Shown here piece by piece: positions 1-7,695 of a stretch of 7,695 bases of DNA. Positions within the stretch are counted from its first letter, which is position 1, and every line of letters starts with the position of its first letter. This DNA is from Naegleria gruberi (taxonomy: Eukaryota): NCBI GenBank assembly GCA_000004985.1, contig GG739116.1; one strand, given 5' to 3'. Made by a program: the position numbers and the translations under genes. A model generated the notes under the pieces. It searched no databases and was not told where the DNA came from. It saw only the letters and a program-made list of their open reading frames with translations.

Positions 1-650
1 TGATTTGGATGCATTGGATAAACCTTTGTCTTGAAACAATTAGAAGCTTGAGTCAACTTTTCAACAATTGAAACAGTTCCTCCAGCTCTAACTTCACTTT
101 CGAATACAGCTTTTGCCTTTTCCTTCTCAACTGGAACAGCATCAACCAATTTACCATTCACTTCCATTGCATAACCCATCATGGTTGCTCCATCAGGCAT
201 TGGCAACACTAATTCACCTTCAATTGTTTTACCATGTGGACTATTAAATGTCATAGTAGAAACCACTTGAACAATAGGATAAGTAACATGACATTTAACA
301 TGATGAGAAACTAATGGCAACAGTGTGGATGCTTTATCGGAAAACTTCTCTCCAGTTACTTGGACATGAATAAAACTATCGGTTGGAAGATCCTTCTTGC
401 TGGTAGTAGTTGTGGTTGCAATTTCTTTTTTGTCATCGGTTGCATTTGTGGTTGTATTTGTAGTTGAACTAATTGATGGTTGACTTGTTTCTTTTGGTTT
501 GTCCAAAACTTCAGTTTTTGCTGGAGTTGTTGCTGTTGGTTGTTTGCTGGATGTTGTTTCTGTGTTGTTTGGTGTCGTTGATGATTTTTCAAGTTCACTT
601 ATTTCTTCATCGACAGCAGCTGCTGATTTCTTACTTTTAAAAAAGCCCAT
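1..650 (-). CDS. 5' part (216 codons, runs off window at pos 1) of a VIT-domain protein (vault protein inter-alpha-trypsin family; probably VIT + vWA architecture). Basic N-terminus MGFFKSKKS, a Thr/Ser-rich linker, then the VIT domain.
   Basis: Minus-strand reading frame from ATG (650-648) down to pos 3 has no stop, and was checked codon by codon. Translation: MGFFKSKKSAAAVDEEISELEKSSTTPNNTETTSSKQPTATTPAKTEVLDKPKETSQPSISSTTNTTTNATDDKKEIATTTTTSKKDLPTDSFIHVQVTGEKFSDKASTLLPLVSHHVKCHVTYPIVQVVSTMTFNSPHGKTIEGELVLPMPDGATMMGYAMEVNGKLVDAVPVEKEKAKAVFESEVRAGGTVSIVEKLTQASNCFKTKVYPMHPN. The stretch LP.PD.A.v.G.ame.nG..v...V.EKE.AKA.fE.....G...S.VE.......F...V matches the VIT domain pattern of ITIH/VWA5A/PARP4-type proteins. 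An in-frame stop lies about 30 codons upstream of the ATG with no other ATG between. The six-frame track omits this ORF because its stop is outside the window. The track ORFs 356..598(-), 499..699(+) and 599..829(-) are other-frame shadows of this gene. Confidence 0.75.
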   Translation of the reverse strand, partial: MGFFKSKKSAAAVDEEISELEKSSTTPNNTETTSSKQPTATTPAKTEVLDKPKETSQPSISSTTNTTTNATDDKKEIATTTTTSKKDLPTDSFIHVQVTGEKFSDKASTLLPLVSHHVKCHVTYPIVQVVSTMTFNSPHGKTIEGELVLPMPDGATMMGYAMEVNGKLVDAVPVEKEKAKAVFESEVRAGGTVSIVEKLTQASNCFKTKVYPMHPN

Positions 651-853
651 TTTTTTTGATTTTCTTGTGGTATGTTCATCTTGCCTGTTCTTTTTATGAT
701 CTGAAGGAAGAAGGATGTGTGAACATGATCCAGGGAGTTACGATTAGTTCTTGAGACCAAAAATTCAACAATGGCTTGTAAGCAAATGGGTAATAGATCA
801 AAATTAACGATAAAGTTAACTCCCTCCAAGCCATTTGATAATTTGTGATCAAA

Positions 854-865: not shown

Positions 866-938
866 TGCTGACGGACGGGATCGAACCGGCGACCAATGGC
901 TTATTAGACCAACGCTCTACCGACTGAGCTACGCCAGC
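866..938 (-). tRNA. tRNA-Ile(AAU): tRNA-Ile, anticodon AAU (73 nt including discriminator A; no encoded CCA, no intron)
   Basis: Reverse complement of 866-938 is GCTGGCG TA GCTC AGTCGGTA GAGC G TTGGT CTAATAA GCCAT TGGTC GCCGG TTCGATC CCGTC CGTCAGC A. The acceptor stem is 7 bp with one G-U. The D arm carries a perfect A box (TAGCTCAGTCGG). The anticodon loop is C-U33-AAU-A37-A. The T arm carries a perfect B box (GGTTCGATCC). There are two non-Watson-Crick stem pairs: 27-43 U.U and 50-64 C.U. Confidence 0.8.
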
Positions 939-984
939 TTGCATTCTTCATTAAATACTTTAATAATTCTCTAATATAACAAAT

Positions 985-1118
985 CACGTAGCGCAGTCAT
1001 TTATAGCAACGTTTATTGAAAGAGCTACGTTACAATTTTATTGAATGTATCAATTTCAATTTTGAATTGAATTACATACCAACGCAATTAACGCAACGTT
1101 AAATGACTGCGCTACGTT
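985..1118. repeat. R1: ~132-bp palindromic, MITE-like element with ~18-33 bp imperfect terminal inverted repeats (acgtagcgcagtcattta ... taaatgactgcgctacgt) and internal hairpins (attga-atgta-tcaat; ttcaatt-ttg-aattgaa at 1055-1071)
   Basis: Left arm 986-1003 is the exact reverse complement of 1100-1117. The extended arms (986-1018 vs reverse complement of 1086-1118) match imperfectly. The paired motif GCAACGTT-N10-GCTACGTT occurs in both arms (1006/1024 and 1093/1111). Confidence 0.6.
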
Positions 1119-1173
1119 AAAATTTTATTTTTTTTAAAGAAAAGGATTATTATTTTTAAATTTAATTTTATCA

Positions 1174-1419
1174 ATGAAAATAGAATTTGATAAAAATTTT
1201 AATATTTATGAATTTAAAGAAAATGAACAAGAAAAAGTTTCACCAATAATTAAAGATTTTAAAGGAAAAAGATCAAAATATTTTCCAAATTTAAATAATA
1301 CATCATATTTATCAGTAGATCAAGTTGAAACAGATTATAGAGCTCAAGTTAATTTTGATCCAATTCATGCACATATTAAAACTAAAAGAAAAACTGGAAT
1401 GAAAATTGTAAATAAATAA
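1174..1419 (+). CDS. Hypothetical small protein of 81 aa, lysine-rich and basic at the C-terminus, sitting between R1 and R2. No recognisable domain.
   Basis: The ORF is complete (ATG ... TAA), MKIEFDKNFNIYEFKENEQEKVSPIIKDFKGKRSKYFPNLNNTSYLSVDQVETDYRAQVNFDPIHAHIKTKRKTGMKIVNK. An 81-codon open frame in roughly 22%-GC DNA is unlikely by chance (about 0.91^81). Third codon positions are almost all A/T, unlike the neighbouring VIT and Rac genes. A T/A-rich tract lies 50 bp upstream. No homology can be assessed without a search. Confidence 0.35.
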   Translation: MKIEFDKNFNIYEFKENEQEKVSPIIKDFKGKRSKYFPNLNNTSYLSVDQVETDYRAQVNFDPIHAHIKTKRKTGMKIVNK

Positions 1420-1421
1420 AT

Positions 1422-1556
1422 TAATTATAGCAACGTTTATTGAAAGAGCTACGTTACAATTTTATTGATAGAGAGCAATGTATCAATTTCAATTTTGAAT
1501 TGAATGACATACAAATTTAATTAACGCAACGTTAAATGACTGCGCTACGTTAAAAT
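1422..1556. repeat. R2: second copy of the R element (~90% identical to R1 over ~130 bp) with a 9-bp insertion (tagagagca). It lacks the outer 18 bp of the left TIR and starts immediately after the stop codon of the 81-aa ORF.
   Basis: R2 (1427-1556) aligns to R1 (1004-1122), sharing tatagcaacgtttattgaaagagctacgttacaattttattga ... atgtatcaatttcaattttgaattgaat ... ttaacgcaacgttaaatgactgcgctacgttaaaattt. The right-arm motif taaatgactgcgctacgt is present at 1533-1550. The left outer arm is absent. Confidence 0.6.
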
Positions 1557-1575
1557 TTAAAATTATTAAATATAA

Positions 1576-1598
1576 TACCGACTGAGCTACGCCAGCTT
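1576..1598 (-). repeat. Solo duplicated fragment of the tRNA-Ile gene: 2 nt of 5' flank plus tRNA nt 1-21 (acceptor 5' strand, D-stem 5' strand and D-loop, containing the A box). It is identical to 918-940.
   Basis: taccgactgagctacgccagctt occurs at 918-940 and again at 1576-1598 (23/23). The flanks diverge on both sides (c917 vs a1575; g941 vs c1599). Confidence 0.8.
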
Positions 1599-1781
1599 CA
1601 CAATTACCTATCCCCTTAATGAACTAGGCAAATACCTAATTTCCATCCAGCTTTTAGTAGGGAATTATAGAAGATGTCACATTTCCAAAGAACATCAGAA
1701 AACTTGCAAAAAAAATAGCAAACAAAGCAGACAAGATTTTGAAAATTAATTTCNGGAGGATGAACTATTCATCAATAAAAC

Positions 1782-1865
1782 ATGGAGAAAGCAAAAAAGA
1801 AAAAACTAGTGTCGCTTCAACGAGAAGAAATATTTTCCGATGATATTTGTTTTGAAATAATTTCC
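1782..1865 (+). CDS. N-terminus of an uncharacterised plus-strand gene (MEKAKKKKLVSLQREEIFSDDICFEIIS...) that continues into the N-masked block
   Basis: ATG at 1782 opens a frame with no stop through 28 codons until the N run starts. The upstream alternative ATG at 1760 hits a stop. Codon usage resembles the flanking genes. The rest of the gene cannot be read. Confidence 0.3.
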
Positions 1866-4800
1866 NNNNNNNNNNNNNNNNNNNNNNNNNNNNNNNNNNN
1901 NNNNNNNNNNNNNNNNNNNNNNNNNNNNNNNNNNNNNNNNNNNNNNNNNNNNNNNNNNNNNNNNNNNNNNNNNNNNNNNNNNNNNNNNNNNNNNNNNNNN
2001 NNNNNNNNNNNNNNNNNNNNNNNNNNNNNNNNNNNNNNNNNNNNNNNNNNNNNNNNNNNNNNNNNNNNNNNNNNNNNNNNNNNNNNNNNNNNNNNNNNNN
2101 NNNNNNNNNNNNNNNNNNNNNNNNNNNNNNNNNNNNNNNNNNNNNNNNNNNNNNNNNNNNNNNNNNNNNNNNNNNNNNNNNNNNNNNNNNNNNNNNNNNN
2201 NNNNNNNNNNNNNNNNNNNNNNNNNNNNNNNNNNNNNNNNNNNNNNNNNNNNNNNNNNNNNNNNNNNNNNNNNNNNNNNNNNNNNNNNNNNNNNNNNNNN
2301 NNNNNNNNNNNNNNNNNNNNNNNNNNNNNNNNNNNNNNNNNNNNNNNNNNNNNNNNNNNNNNNNNNNNNNNNNNNNNNNNNNNNNNNNNNNNNNNNNNNN
2401 NNNNNNNNNNNNNNNNNNNNNNNNNNNNNNNNNNNNNNNNNNNNNNNNNNNNNNNNNNNNNNNNNNNNNNNNNNNNNNNNNNNNNNNNNNNNNNNNNNNN
2501 NNNNNNNNNNNNNNNNNNNNNNNNNNNNNNNNNNNNNNNNNNNNNNNNNNNNNNNNNNNNNNNNNNNNNNNNNNNNNNNNNNNNNNNNNNNNNNNNNNNN
2601 NNNNNNNNNNNNNNNNNNNNNNNNNNNNNNNNNNNNNNNNNNNNNNNNNNNNNNNNNNNNNNNNNNNNNNNNNNNNNNNNNNNNNNNNNNNNNNNNNNNN
2701 NNNNNNNNNNNNNNNNNNNNNNNNNNNNNNNNNNNNNNNNNNNNNNNNNNNNNNNNNNNNNNNNNNNNNNNNNNNNNNNNNNNNNNNNNNNNNNNNNNNN
2801 NNNNNNNNNNNNNNNNNNNNNNNNNNNNNNNNNNNNNNNNNNNNNNNNNNNNNNNNNNNNNNNNNNNNNNNNNNNNNNNNNNNNNNNNNNNNNNNNNNNN
2901 NNNNNNNNNNNNNNNNNNNNNNNNNNNNNNNNNNNNNNNNNNNNNNNNNNNNNNNNNNNNNNNNNNNNNNNNNNNNNNNNNNNNNNNNNNNNNNNNNNNN
3001 NNNNNNNNNNNNNNNNNNNNNNNNNNNNNNNNNNNNNNNNNNNNNNNNNNNNNNNNNNNNNNNNNNNNNNNNNNNNNNNNNNNNNNNNNNNNNNNNNNNN
3101 NNNNNNNNNNNNNNNNNNNNNNNNNNNNNNNNNNNNNNNNNNNNNNNNNNNNNNNNNNNNNNNNNNNNNNNNNNNNNNNNNNNNNNNNNNNNNNNNNNNN
3201 NNNNNNNNNNNNNNNNNNNNNNNNNNNNNNNNNNNNNNNNNNNNNNNNNNNNNNNNNNNNNNNNNNNNNNNNNNNNNNNNNNNNNNNNNNNNNNNNNNNN
3301 NNNNNNNNNNNNNNNNNNNNNNNNNNNNNNNNNNNNNNNNNNNNNNNNNNNNNNNNNNNNNNNNNNNNNNNNNNNNNNNNNNNNNNNNNNNNNNNNNNNN
3401 NNNNNNNNNNNNNNNNNNNNNNNNNNNNNNNNNNNNNNNNNNNNNNNNNNNNNNNNNNNNNNNNNNNNNNNNNNNNNNNNNNNNNNNNNNNNNNNNNNNN
3501 NNNNNNNNNNNNNNNNNNNNNNNNNNNNNNNNNNNNNNNNNNNNNNNNNNNNNNNNNNNNNNNNNNNNNNNNNNNNNNNNNNNNNNNNNNNNNNNNNNNN
3601 NNNNNNNNNNNNNNNNNNNNNNNNNNNNNNNNNNNNNNNNNNNNNNNNNNNNNNNNNNNNNNNNNNNNNNNNNNNNNNNNNNNNNNNNNNNNNNNNNNNN
3701 NNNNNNNNNNNNNNNNNNNNNNNNNNNNNNNNNNNNNNNNNNNNNNNNNNNNNNNNNNNNNNNNNNNNNNNNNNNNNNNNNNNNNNNNNNNNNNNNNNNN
3801 NNNNNNNNNNNNNNNNNNNNNNNNNNNNNNNNNNNNNNNNNNNNNNNNNNNNNNNNNNNNNNNNNNNNNNNNNNNNNNNNNNNNNNNNNNNNNNNNNNNN
3901 NNNNNNNNNNNNNNNNNNNNNNNNNNNNNNNNNNNNNNNNNNNNNNNNNNNNNNNNNNNNNNNNNNNNNNNNNNNNNNNNNNNNNNNNNNNNNNNNNNNN
4001 NNNNNNNNNNNNNNNNNNNNNNNNNNNNNNNNNNNNNNNNNNNNNNNNNNNNNNNNNNNNNNNNNNNNNNNNNNNNNNNNNNNNNNNNNNNNNNNNNNNN
4101 NNNNNNNNNNNNNNNNNNNNNNNNNNNNNNNNNNNNNNNNNNNNNNNNNNNNNNNNNNNNNNNNNNNNNNNNNNNNNNNNNNNNNNNNNNNNNNNNNNNN
4201 NNNNNNNNNNNNNNNNNNNNNNNNNNNNNNNNNNNNNNNNNNNNNNNNNNNNNNNNNNNNNNNNNNNNNNNNNNNNNNNNNNNNNNNNNNNNNNNNNNNN
4301 NNNNNNNNNNNNNNNNNNNNNNNNNNNNNNNNNNNNNNNNNNNNNNNNNNNNNNNNNNNNNNNNNNNNNNNNNNNNNNNNNNNNNNNNNNNNNNNNNNNN
4401 NNNNNNNNNNNNNNNNNNNNNNNNNNNNNNNNNNNNNNNNNNNNNNNNNNNNNNNNNNNNNNNNNNNNNNNNNNNNNNNNNNNNNNNNNNNNNNNNNNNN
4501 NNNNNNNNNNNNNNNNNNNNNNNNNNNNNNNNNNNNNNNNNNNNNNNNNNNNNNNNNNNNNNNNNNNNNNNNNNNNNNNNNNNNNNNNNNNNNNNNNNNN
4601 NNNNNNNNNNNNNNNNNNNNNNNNNNNNNNNNNNNNNNNNNNNNNNNNNNNNNNNNNNNNNNNNNNNNNNNNNNNNNNNNNNNNNNNNNNNNNNNNNNNN
4701 NNNNNNNNNNNNNNNNNNNNNNNNNNNNNNNNNNNNNNNNNNNNNNNNNNNNNNNNNNNNNNNNNNNNNNNNNNNNNNNNNNNNNNNNNNNNNNNNNNNN

Positions 4801-6594
4801 NNNNNNNNNNNNNNNNNNNNNNNNNNNNNNNNNNNNNNNNNNNNNNNNNNNNNNNNNNNNNNNNNNNNNNNNNNNNNNNNNNNNNNNNNNNNNNNNNNNN
4901 NNNNNNNNNNNNNNNNNNNNNNNNNNNNNNNNNNNNNNNNNNNNNNNNNNNNNNNNNNNNNNNNNNNNNNNNNNNNNNNNNNNNNNNNNNNNNNNNNNNN
5001 NNNNNNNNNNNNNNNNNNNNNNNNNNNNNNNNNNNNNNNNNNNNNNNNNNNNNNNNNNNNNNNNNNNNNNNNNNNNNNNNNNNNNNNNNNNNNNNNNNNN
5101 NNNNNNNNNNNNNNNNNNNNNNNNNNNNNNNNNNNNNNNNNNNNNNNNNNNNNNNNNNNNNNNNNNNNNNNNNNNNNNNNNNNNNNNNNNNNNNNNNNNN
5201 NNNNNNNNNNNNNNNNNNNNNNNNNNNNNNNNNNNNNNNNNNNNNNNNNNNNNNNNNNNNNNNNNNNNNNNNNNNNNNNNNNNNNNNNNNNNNNNNNNNN
5301 NNNNNNNNNNNNNNNNNNNNNNNNNNNNNNNNNNNNNNNNNNNNNNNNNNNNNNNNNNNNNNNNNNNNNNNNNNNNNNNNNNNNNNNNNNNNNNNNNNNN
5401 NNNNNNNNNNNNNNNNNNNNNNNNNNNNNNNNNNNNNNNNNNNNNNNNNNNNNNNNNNNNNNNNNNNNNNNNNNNNNNNNNNNNNNNNNNNNNNNNNNNN
5501 NNNNNNNNNNNNNNNNNNNNNNNNNNNNNNNNNNNNNNNNNNNNNNNNNNNNNNNNNNNNNNNNNNNNNNNNNNNNNNNNNNNNNNNNNNNNNNNNNNNN
5601 NNNNNNNNNNNNNNNNNNNNNNNNNNNNNNNNNNNNNNNNNNNNNNNNNNNNNNNNNNNNNNNNNNNNNNNNNNNNNNNNNNNNNNNNNNNNNNNNNNNN
5701 NNNNNNNNNNNNNNNNNNNNNNNNNNNNNNNNNNNNNNNNNNNNNNNNNNNNNNNNNNNNNNNNNNNNNNNNNNNNNNNNNNNNNNNNNNNNNNNNNNNN
5801 NNNNNNNNNNNNNNNNNNNNNNNNNNNNNNNNNNNNNNNNNNNNNNNNNNNNNNNNNNNNNNNNNNNNNNNNNNNNNNNNNNNNNNNNNNNNNNNNNNNN
5901 NNNNNNNNNNNNNNNNNNNNNNNNNNNNNNNNNNNNNNNNNNNNNNNNNNNNNNNNNNNNNNNNNNNNNNNNNNNNNNNNNNNNNNNNNNNNNNNNNNNN
6001 NNNNNNNNNNNNNNNNNNNNNNNNNNNNNNNNNNNNNNNNNNNNNNNNNNNNNNNNNNNNNNNNNNNNNNNNNNNNNNNNNNNNNNNNNNNNNNNNNNNN
6101 NNNNNNNNNNNNNNNNNNNNNNNNNNNNNNNNNNNNNNNNNNNNNNNNNNNNNNNNNNNNNNNNNNNNNNNNNNNNNNNNNNNNNNNNNNNNNNNNNNNN
6201 NNNNNNNNNNNNNNNNNNNNNNNNNNNNNNNNNNNNNNNNNNNNNNNNNNNNNNNNNNNNNNNNNNNNNNNNNNNNNNNNNNNNNNNNNNNNNNNNNNNN
6301 NNNNNNNNNNNNNNNNNNNNNNNNNNNNNNNNNNNNNNNNNNNNNNNNNNNNNNNNNNNNNNNNNNNNNNNNNNNNNNNNNNNNNNNNNNNNNNNNNNNN
6401 NNNNNNNNNNNNNNNNNNNNNNNNNNNNNNNNNNNNNNNNNNNNNNNNNNNNNNNNNNNNNNNNNNNNNNNNNNNNNNNNNNNNNNNNNNNNNNNNNNNN
6501 NNNNNNNNNNNNNNNNNNNNNNNNNNNNNNNNNNNNNNNNNNNNNNNNNNNNNNNNNNNNNNNNNNNNNNNNNNNNNNNNNNNNNNNNNNNNNN
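1866..6594. other. 4729-bp run of N: an assembly gap or a deliberately masked segment. Nothing can be inferred from it.
   Basis: Uninterrupted n characters. The ORF-track entries 1782..6623(+), 1806..6638(-) and 1817..6631(-) are artefacts of translating N as X. Confidence 1.
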
Positions 6595-6998: not shown

Positions 6999-7274
6999 TT
7001 ACAACAGACTACATTTGCCAGACTTCTTCTTTTCTGAGCTTTGATCTGGACTCTTTGGATCCAAAACACATTCGATAACATAGTTGAAAGTTTCCTTCAA
7101 TCCTTCTTGTGATTTAGCAGAACATTCCGAATAGTATTGAGCTCCAACTTCCTTGGCTACTTTTTGTCCTTCTTCTGAAGACACTACTTGTAATCCTTCT
7201 CTTTGAAGATAGTCTTTATCCTTACGAAGATCAGCCTTAGTTCCTGTGAGAACAATTGGCACTTTTGGACAGTG
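6999..7274 (-). CDS. Rac/Rho-family small GTPase, terminal exon (91 codons + stop): HCPKVPIVLTGTKADLRKDKDYLQREGLQVVSSEEGQKVAKEVGAQYYSECSAKSQEGLKETFNYVIECVLDPKSPDQSSEKKKSGKCSLL*
   Basis: Contains the G4 motif TKxD (TGTKADLR), the G5 motif ECSAK, a polybasic stretch and the CaaX box CSLL directly before TAA (7001-6999). Acceptor AG (plus-strand ct 7275-7276) preceded by tttaaatag. Reading frame is continuous with the upstream exon, giving ...PEVKH|HCPK... Confidence 0.85.
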   Translation of the reverse strand, partial: HCPKVPIVLTGTKADLRKDKDYLQREGLQVVSSEEGQKVAKEVGAQYYSECSAKSQEGLKETFNYVIECVLDPKSPDQSSEKKKSGKCSLL

Positions 7275-7394
7275 CTATTTAAATAATAAAGTTGTTTGTT
7301 TGTTTACATGCATGTAACAACAGATATGTTCAACATGTTGTTAAAAGTATAAAGAATAAATAAATCTTTTCAAGTGGTGTAGAGTACTACTTAC

Positions 7395-7515
7395 ATGTTT
7401 AACTTCCGGAACCCACTTGGCCTTTACGTTCATTAAACTTGTATGATTGACAACAGAGAAGCAGACGAGGAAAACTTGAGCATCAGGATAAGACAATGGT
7501 CGCAAACGATCATAG
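7395..7515 (-). CDS. Rac/Rho-family GTPase, internal exon (121 nt, phase 2 to 0): (D)[40 protein letters not shown]
   Basis: Flanked by an acceptor ...aataattttcag and a donor gtaagtag. Intron 7275-7394 is 120 bp and intron 7516-7615 is 100 bp, both AT-rich. [20 protein letters not shown] and KWVPEV are near-invariant Rac/Cdc42 blocks. Confidence 0.85.
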
Positions 7516-7615
7516 CTGAAAATTATTTAGCCTAAAAATTCTTCTACTAGAAGATTACTTACTCACTATTAGAAAGTACAATAAATATTGTTGATGAAAA
7601 TTTGAAATTACTTAC

Positions 7616-7695
7616 TCTTGACCAGCTGTATCCCACAAACCCAAAGATACTGTTGTATTCTTGTACATTACGTTAGCAGACGTATTTCACAAAAA
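7616..7695 (-). CDS. Rac/Rho-family GTPase, upstream exon (partial): ...NTSANVMYKNTTVSLGLWDTAGQE followed by donor GTAAGT. An in-frame TGA (7689-7687) lies 7 codons before SANVM, so the true 5' limit is unresolved.
   Basis: The exon ends in ...ggt caa ga|gtaagtaat, a phase-2 donor that joins to c-tat-gat in the next exon. LGLWDTAGQE is the Rac-type G3 switch II motif. SANVM + 7 residues + LGLW has the same spacing as Rac1 (YSANVMVDGKPVNLGLW). The stop codon and the absence of any AG between 7695 and 7669 are anomalous. Confidence 0.7.

Follow-up and report, generated by a model that had tools for sequence, protein, structure and literature searches.

An AT-rich insertion with an orphan reading frame in a tRNA-Ile gene of Naegleria gruberi: a candidate for a small tRNA-gene-targeting element

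The stretch of DNA analysed here (the window) is 7,695 bp long and constitutes one entire small scaffold of the Naegleria gruberi draft assembly. Our subject is an open reading frame (ORF) of 81 codons, which an earlier reading of the letters (hereafter the original prediction) had placed between two copies of a repeat, R. We find that the ORF and both copies of R lie within a single AT-rich block, which is bracketed by a perfect direct repeat of the 5' end of a tRNA-Ile gene. The features of this part of the window are as follows.

866-938, minus strand: intact nuclear tRNA-Ile(AAU) gene (ARAGORN; Rfam tRNA model 59.9 bits, E = 3e-12), with a T-run terminator after the gene
918-940: left copy of the 23-bp direct repeat TACCGACTGAGCTACGCCAGCTT, part of the intact tRNA gene (repeat search and blastn self-comparison)
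941-1575, plus strand: AT-rich insertion of exactly 635 bp, between both 23-bp copies
972-980: TAATATAAC, followed 6 nt later by the left arm of the R1 hairpin; not in a hairpin loop
986-1117: R1 hairpin, 132 nt, with 18-nt perfect inverted arms ACGTAGCGCAGTCATTTA / TAAATGACTGCGCTACGT (33 nt at 82%)
about 1001-1127, minus strand: direct repeat R1, with sub-repeats at 1001-1044 and about 1050-1127, both tRNA-Ile-like in the orientation of the gene
1174-1419, plus strand: orphan ORF, ATG to TAA, 81 aa, on the strand opposite to the tRNA
about 1425-1560, minus strand: direct repeat R2, with the same two tRNA-like sub-repeats
1576-1598, minus strand: right copy of the 23-bp repeat, an orphan 5' tRNA-Ile fragment, followed by host-like upstream DNA

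The 23-bp repeat and the AT-rich insertion

The two copies of the 23-bp repeat are 100% identical, with a spacing of 658. They consist of nt 1-21 of tRNA-Ile together with the 2 nt upstream (-2 to +21), and the insertion junctions fall at nt 21/22 and -3/-2 of the tRNA-Ile(AAU) gene, that is, within a multicopy small RNA gene. Because a perfect direct repeat of the tRNA-Ile 5' end brackets AT-rich DNA, we interpret the block as an insertion. Judged from its sequence, the anatomy of 941-1575 is that of an insertion accompanied by a 23-bp target duplication or, equally, of recombination at a 23-bp core, and in either case the tRNA gene has been kept intact. Direct repeats equal to a segment of a tRNA gene, with the tRNA restored, are what characterises tRNA-integrating recombinase elements, and this is the arrangement found here. 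The original prediction had overlooked the duplication, as it had the tRNA-likeness of R and the second copy of the locus, both of which are described below.

The base composition of the block is distinctive. The insert has a GC content of 22.4% overall (spacers 12.6%, ORF 19.8%, R 30%), against 32-33% in neighbouring intergenic DNA; to the right of the insertion, 1599-1781 has 31.9% GC, which is the ordinary host composition. The minimum 300-bp GC content in the window is 17.3%, reached at 1121-1420, and in about 21 kb of Naegleria-like metagenome DNA every interval of that size has at least 27%. The plus strand of the insert ends in ...AAAATTTAAAATTATTAAATATAA, an A/T-rich end with a 7-nt unit present 2.1 times at 1550-1564 (Tandem Repeats Finder, TRF).

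The orphan reading frame and its product

The original prediction held the ORF to be complete and statistically unlikely, and both points are borne out. The nearest in-frame upstream stop is at 1135, 13 codons before the ATG, and no other ORF of at least 40 aa occurs within the insert. When the 635-bp insert is shuffled (Markov-1 or mononucleotide), 0.5-1.2% of the trials produce an ATG-initiated ORF of 81 aa or longer; for 1118-1575 the figure is 0.2-0.5%. By the measure of shuffling, then, the length of the ORF is unusual without being decisive; the decisive feature is its codon phase.

GC content at codon positions 1, 2 and 3 of the ORF is 34, 22 and 2.5%, respectively. Two third positions hold G or C, both of them in ATG codons, and every one of the 79 non-Met codons has A or T there, in line with the almost exclusive A/T usage noticed at the outset. 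Given the base content of the ORF, a third-position GC content (GC3) of this kind has a hypergeometric P of 1.2e-8; a value as low occurred in 0 of 200,000 random stop-free codon strings, the GC3 count being 1 of 80 against 18 expected. G stands at codon position 1 in 25% of cases, against a background of 11%, and the ORF encodes more E, D, V, G, A and P than does a random AT-rich translation. The other reading frames of the region contain 5-16 stops each. An origin of the 3-base periodicity in a microsatellite or decayed trinucleotide repeat was considered and rejected, TRF having found no repeat in the ORF.

The difference in codon usage from the flanking VIT and Rac genes, also part of the original prediction, stands up well to counting. 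In the VIT fragment and the last Rac exon, GC3 is 22-27% and 232 of 297 codons (78%) are A/T-ending (Fisher P = 5e-8 against the ORF). For Lys, the ORF uses AAA in all 13 cases (AAA:AAG 13:0), against 19:17 in the flanking host genes. The ORF looks like a genuine or recently genuine coding sequence, shaped in a far more AT-rich setting than that of the flanking nuclear genes.

The ORF does lie between the two copies of R, as described. The start of R2 had been placed 2 nt past the TAA, which is approximately right: homology begins about 0-5 nt from the TAA (1418-1425, depending on the alignment). The tRNA-likeness of the first sub-repeat of R2 (R2a) seems to continue beyond the repeat, taking in a few bases at the ORF's 3' end (alignment from 1415; region 1380-1424), and the stop and last codons of the ORF may overlap repeat-derived sequence.

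The 81-aa product has a mass of 9.7 kDa, an isoelectric point (pI) of 9.5, a grand average of hydropathy (GRAVY) of -1.0 and the basic clusters KGKRSK and KTKRK, in agreement with its original description as hydrophilic, with a basic C-terminal tail, and free of any recognisable motif. Pfam returned 0 families at E<=1. A word-indexed search of 5.8 billion clusters (90% identity) gave 0 matches, and phmmer against 1.84 billion representatives (50% identity, viral proteins included) gave 0 at E<=0.001. The best PHROGs match, with E = 0.028, was not significant. There were 0 matches among PDB sequences, none in peptide scans of IMG/VR and of bacterial and archaeal genomes, and 0 in a tblastn search of GenBank phages and plasmids; an exact look-up found no gene with an identical product on record. 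Our best guess at a function, drawn by inference only, is a small basic nuclear protein that binds nucleic acid and acts on repeated GCWACGTT-type motifs.

The R repeats, the host scaffold and searches for further copies

R1 and R2 share 89.6% identity over 134 columns (blastn self-comparison), and each is made up of two sub-repeats of about 44 nt with a mutual likeness of 77-80%. Relative to R1, R2 is missing ~15 nt at the start of the left inverted arm and carries an 8-9-nt insertion (tagagagc); from this insertion arises a 27-nt unit that TRF reports 2.1 times, with 79% matches, at 1436-1489. Folded as DNA, the R1 hairpin has an energy of -30.4 kcal/mol (z = -5.96), and its left arm (the perfect 18 nt, 986-1003) can also pair with the right arm of R2 at 1516-1550. 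The inverted arms ACGTAGCGCAGTC... sit 45 and 25 nt inside the insertion boundaries, an equal spacing of both arms from the 23-bp duplication not being observed, and GACTGCGCTACG of the arms equals GACTGAGCTACG of the target gene at 11 of 12 positions.

In local and global alignments, the R sub-repeats are 61-72% identical to tRNA-Ile over 36-64 positions, and one such alignment spans the tRNA from the T-arm to the 5' end. Compared with 3,000 shuffles, this likeness has P = 0.0013 for R1 and 0.0003 for R2, or 0.0027 when R1 is shuffled in place of the tRNA; the non-R part of the insert shows no likeness to tRNA-Ile (P = 0.7). The differences between R and the tRNA are biased from GC to AT (16:4, 17:2 and 8:0). 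The best-conserved block of R, GACTG(C/A)GCTACG (GACTGNGCTACG), falls within the 23-bp duplicated target. This is good but not conclusive evidence, from alignment, that R represents degenerate copies of the target tRNA-Ile gene. The copies are not functional tRNAs, since the Rfam tRNA model, which recognises the real gene alone, has no match to them at E<=1 anywhere in the insert.

Blocks resembling GACTGNGCTACG (in the form GAAAGAGCTACG in the 'a' sub-repeats) start at 923, 1018, 1105, 1442, 1538 and 1581 on the plus strand, with an inverted one at 987. The spacings between them are 95, 87, 337, 96 and 43 nt, of which three are near the length of one tRNA plus a short spacer; such spacing could record an old tandem tRNA-Ile array rather than sites borne by an element. 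The motif TAATATAAC matches 8 of the 9 positions of TAATATTAC, the origin nonanucleotide of rolling-circle single-stranded DNA replicons, which we presume to be chance in DNA so rich in A and T.

Three other identities for R and the cassette were tried and rejected. As a structured RNA, R yields just sub-threshold generic miRNA-hairpin matches in Rfam, and no second tRNA. Were R1 and R2 the long terminal repeats (LTRs) of a retrotransposon or of a terminal-repeat retrotransposon in miniature, a primer-binding site complementary to a tRNA 3' end would be looked for right after R1, and the sequence there contains none. An analogy to integron cassettes, with their ORF and palindromic site, founders on the eukaryotic context, the eukaryote-type tRNA-Ile(AAU), the want of an integrase and core sites that do not fit. 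A DNA transposon with terminal inverted repeats, or a miniature inverted-repeat transposable element (MITE) derived from one, does not suit inverted repeats that are not terminal and that lack a short flanking duplication. Short interspersed elements derived from tRNAs start with a tRNA-related head that holds A and B boxes, and have a tail and a target duplication. The insert has tRNA-like segments too, in two copies each; they lie in its interior and on the same strand as the tRNA.

The remainder of the scaffold contains the following.

3-653, minus strand: N-terminal fragment of a VIT-domain gene
1616-1685, plus strand: sub-threshold Rfam match to mitochondrion-encoded transfer-messenger RNA (24 bits against a gathering threshold of 65, E = 0.17)
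1754: a lone N
1782-1865, plus strand: apparent start of an F-box-type host gene, opening MEKAKKKKLVSLQREEIFSDDICFEIIS, 28 aa and then the gap, divergent from the VIT gene
1866-6594: scaffold gap of 4,729 N, which separates the Rac gene from the F-box-like gene start
6999-7695, minus strand: Rac/Rho-family GTPase gene with short AT-rich introns, its 5' end beyond the scaffold edge; the last exon is 6999-7262, with the CAAX box CSLL at its end

The VIT fragment is identical at 208 of 209 positions (K53 against Q53) to the N-terminus of the full-length protein NAEGRDRAFT_80675 (1,222 aa), which is encoded on a scaffold of 362,555 bp. By this comparison the 7,695-bp scaffold is a near-identical second copy of the locus on the larger one, and it is probably an alternative haplotype left unmerged. 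Given this second copy, the insertion may be haplotype-polymorphic, or allele-specific, and hence recently active; the VIT match is compatible with a haplotype-specific structure having prevented the merging of the small scaffold. The transfer-messenger RNA match, in host-like DNA just beyond the insertion, is most likely chance. Orthologues of the Rac gene, with 78-94% identity, occur on three metagenome contigs of the European Nucleotide Archive (L008-L010) among different neighbours, so that synteny with the tRNA or VIT side is not conserved; no match to the tRNA, VIT, F-box gene or ORF was found on them. For a comparison with an empty site, the contigs that hold relatives of the VIT gene offer less than 100 bp upstream of it.

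Searches for other copies of the cassette covered viral, metagenome, prokaryotic and plasmid collections, and are silent on its copy number in the host genome. An 18-mer from the arm of R had 0 matches in IMG/VR and 4 in metagenomes, none of which extended and which we attribute to chance. A 23-mer from R had 0 matches in 185,579 prokaryotic genomes, and blastn of the insert against plasmids (PLSDB) returned nothing.

Origin of the insertion and comparison with known systems

The interpretation that we tentatively favour, and consider to fall just short of probable, is that the cassette is a small non-autonomous or remnant mobile element that targets tRNA genes, with the ORF as its cargo or accessory gene. 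The 635-bp element would have entered the 5' part of the nuclear tRNA-Ile(AAU) gene and duplicated its 23-bp target, with the tRNA gene kept intact at one end of the insert and an orphan 5' fragment of it at the other; a staggered cut, target-primed reverse transcription or recombination at the 23-bp core could each have achieved this. That the block encodes no enzyme is why we would call the element non-autonomous or a remnant; its enzyme would presumably act in trans from elsewhere. The tRNA-mimicking R repeats may serve in the choice of target, or may be fragments kept from earlier insertions, while the product of the ORF would be the cargo or an accessory protein of the element. The original prediction had proposed a foreign or mobile origin from codon usage: that the codon usage is foreign to the flanking genes and that the block resembles an insertion we retain, while R, with its inner arms and its tRNA-like sequence, does not provide clean transposon ends. 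N. gruberi has about 924 tDNAs (PMC2888827), so that targets would be plentiful. Mobility as a family would be an extrapolation from a single copy. A more specific proposal, which we regard as rather unlikely, is that of an undescribed tiny element of Naegleria (Discoba) targeting tRNA-Ile genes, with a 23-bp duplication, decoy copies of its target and one relative-less basic protein of 81 aa that helps to recognise the repeats or the target; such a design, if true, would be unusual in its 23-bp duplication, its target-mimicking repeats and its tiny orphan gene.

A number of observations weigh against a tRNA-gene-targeting element. Neither the ORF list nor Pfam reveals a transposase, reverse transcriptase or recombinase in 941-1575. 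To our knowledge, 23 bp exceeds the target duplication of any eukaryotic cut-and-paste superfamily. The arms at 986 and 1550 are subterminal and their flanks (…aaatc / taaaa…) carry no short target duplication, and the insert has no clear poly(A) tail, just an A/T-rich end. The likeness of R to the tRNA is modest (61-72%) and, with all copies descended from one ancestral sub-repeat, counts as one observation and not four. A single-sequence AlphaFold2 model of the protein showed no confident fold (predicted local distance difference test score 54, predicted template modelling score 0.21) and is uninformative. Finally, one copy is visible: no second R, ORF or insertion was seen in the collections scanned, which carries little weight given that the N. 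gruberi genome was not among them.

The main rival, unlikely in our view, is that the block is a local patchwork, namely a decayed array of incomplete tRNA-Ile copies upstream of the gene, produced by tandem duplication or by template-switching break repair at a fragile tRNA gene, with the 23-bp repeat as its youngest fragment and the ORF as a small host gene or repair filler. Blocks of tRNA-like sequence in one orientation at spacings of 95, 87 and 96 nt (about one tRNA and a short spacer), together with one inverted fragment, are what such an array would leave, the GC content of R (30%) equals that of host intergenic DNA, and the bias of its differences from GC to AT is expected under neutral decay. 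Yet decay towards the host equilibrium (~32% GC) leaves spacers of 12.6% GC and a synonymous third-position GC of 0% unexplained, and the likeness of the blocks is irregular, with half copies and with spacings of 337 and 43 nt. The edges of the AT-rich block, moreover, coincide exactly with the 23-bp repeats, which take in 2 nt of non-tRNA flank in the manner of a target duplication. The extreme AT bias and foreign codon usage could instead reflect a one-off capture of foreign AT-rich DNA at a break in the tRNA gene—from a giant virus, a virophage, a plasmid-like element or another organism—which would be unable to move by itself, the ORF being a dead relic of the donor. Giant viruses and plasmids typically carry ORFans, and an orphan protein would fit such a source; however, nothing in IMG/VR, the GenBank phages, the plasmids or the 1.84 billion protein representatives matches it. 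In a study of the methylated gene fraction of N. gruberi, virus-derived genes were not enriched (PMC12344493), which likewise speaks against capture. Neither the 23-bp duplication nor the presence, within captured DNA, of look-alikes of the very tRNA gene in which it landed would be explained; these look-alikes disfavour random capture, which we judge improbable, and point to an element that has been associated with tRNA-Ile genes before or has a means of becoming so.

The remaining alternatives are weaker still. That the ORF is a stop-free run of AT-rich spacer with no coding function would accord with its shortness, with the absence of a homologue, domain or confident fold for its product, with its being unannotated in the NCBI record, and with there being no gene on record for such a product. 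We nevertheless hold this to be very unlikely: the stop-free run alone is a 0.5-1.2% event, TRF gives no microsatellite origin, and the asymmetry between codon positions is not expected of non-coding DNA (0/200,000; P = 1.2e-8; G at position 1 in 25% against 11%). An assembly or cloning artefact, in which pieces of a very small and gap-ridden Sanger scaffold would have been joined as a chimera, is brought to mind by the 7,695-bp length, the 4,729-N gap, the lone N at 1754 and the duplication of a large-scaffold locus. Chimeric joins, however, do not generate the biological signature seen here, a perfect duplication of 23 bp by which the tRNA gene is made whole, and no PLSDB plasmid matches the insert; we rate an artefact as highly improbable. 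The Naegleria mitochondrial genome has a GC content of 22%, which the insert (22%) resembles, and an organellar origin would make the block a nuclear copy of mitochondrial DNA (numt) or a piece of the extrachromosomal ribosomal DNA element. Such an origin is scarcely credible, given that the ORF protein matches no deposited Naegleria organelle protein, and both forms of it are contradicted by published data: a survey of the N. gruberi nuclear assembly against the mitochondrial genome NC_002573 found 0 numt BLAST hits (PMC2820518), and the part of the ribosomal DNA plasmid outside the ribosomal DNA has 36.7% GC (PMC5805870).

If the cassette belongs to a family, Heterolobosea, a lineage in which transposons have been poorly catalogued, would gain a target-specific mobile element. 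Elements that enter one fixed position of a multicopy RNA gene and spare that gene could be useful for the delivery of genes to safe harbours, an argument made for the Dada elements (PMC3706591). Should the cassette be single-copy and fixed, it would be a mere curiosity of one tRNA locus. The ORF would in addition provide a concrete case of an ORFan that is clearly of coding type and whose origin is potentially traceable.

The closest parallels among known systems are with Dada DNA transposons (Kojima & Jurka 2013), which insert within small RNA genes and of which two, Dada-tIA and Dada-tIB of Perkinsus marinus, occupy tRNA-Ile; they have subterminal inverted repeats whose sequence is also present in the target gene (PMC3706591). 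As in Dada, the insertion lies at a defined site in a small RNA gene (here too tRNA-Ile), in or near the A-box region, and has no true terminal inverted repeats, only subterminal ones that recur in the target (GACTGCGCTACG/GACTGAGCTACG, 11/12). Dada from Naegleria is not reported in that paper (PMC3706591). Non-autonomous, internally deleted derivatives of Dada exist. Dada differs in its 6-7-bp duplication (TAGCTC in tRNA-Ile), against 23 bp here, in its size of 4.7-11 kb and in its DDE transposase of about 1,000 aa or more, whereas the present insertion comprises 635 bp with an 81-aa ORF and no Pfam match; between Dada and the insert there is no sequence similarity.

Non-LTR retrotransposons supply a second comparison, the CRE/SLACS elements being target-specific members found in Euglenozoa, relatives of the host. 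NeSL-related elements are specific for tRNA genes. NeSL-1_TV resides in tRNA-Pro, and LIN15 and LIN25 in tRNA-Arg/Glu, while Utopia, a relative of NeSL specific to U2 snRNA, makes target duplications of 0-20 bp (PMC4640811). In common with the insert, these elements reside inside tRNA or small RNA genes. Their target duplications vary in size and can be long, and the 23 bp seen here, just past the range for Utopia, would be compatible with that; 5'-truncated and non-autonomous copies are common. In contrast, Pfam finds no remnant of a reverse transcriptase or endonuclease in the insert, and its end is A/T-rich with no clear poly(A) or microsatellite tail. The ORF, having its own start codon and in-frame stops upstream, is not a truncated ORF2 of a non-LTR element, and the tRNA-like internal direct repeats are not a feature of such elements.

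The bacterial and archaeal elements that integrate into tRNA genes by means of a tyrosine integrase are likewise bracketed by direct repeats of a tRNA segment and leave the tRNA gene intact, and small basic excisionase-like accessory proteins often adjoin their att site. Unlike them, the present insertion is found in a eukaryotic nucleus, is only 0.6 kb long and has no integrase gene in 941-1575, and its repeat consists of the tRNA 5' end with 2 flanking nt and not the 3' half. With MITEs and foldback elements it shares an AT-rich hairpin module of ~130 nt with 18-nt perfect arms (R1); it differs from them in that the arms lie off the insertion boundaries, with no adjacent short duplication, and that R2 is short of one arm. 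Target-specific insertions in small RNA genes are already known; here, such an insertion carries an ORFan.

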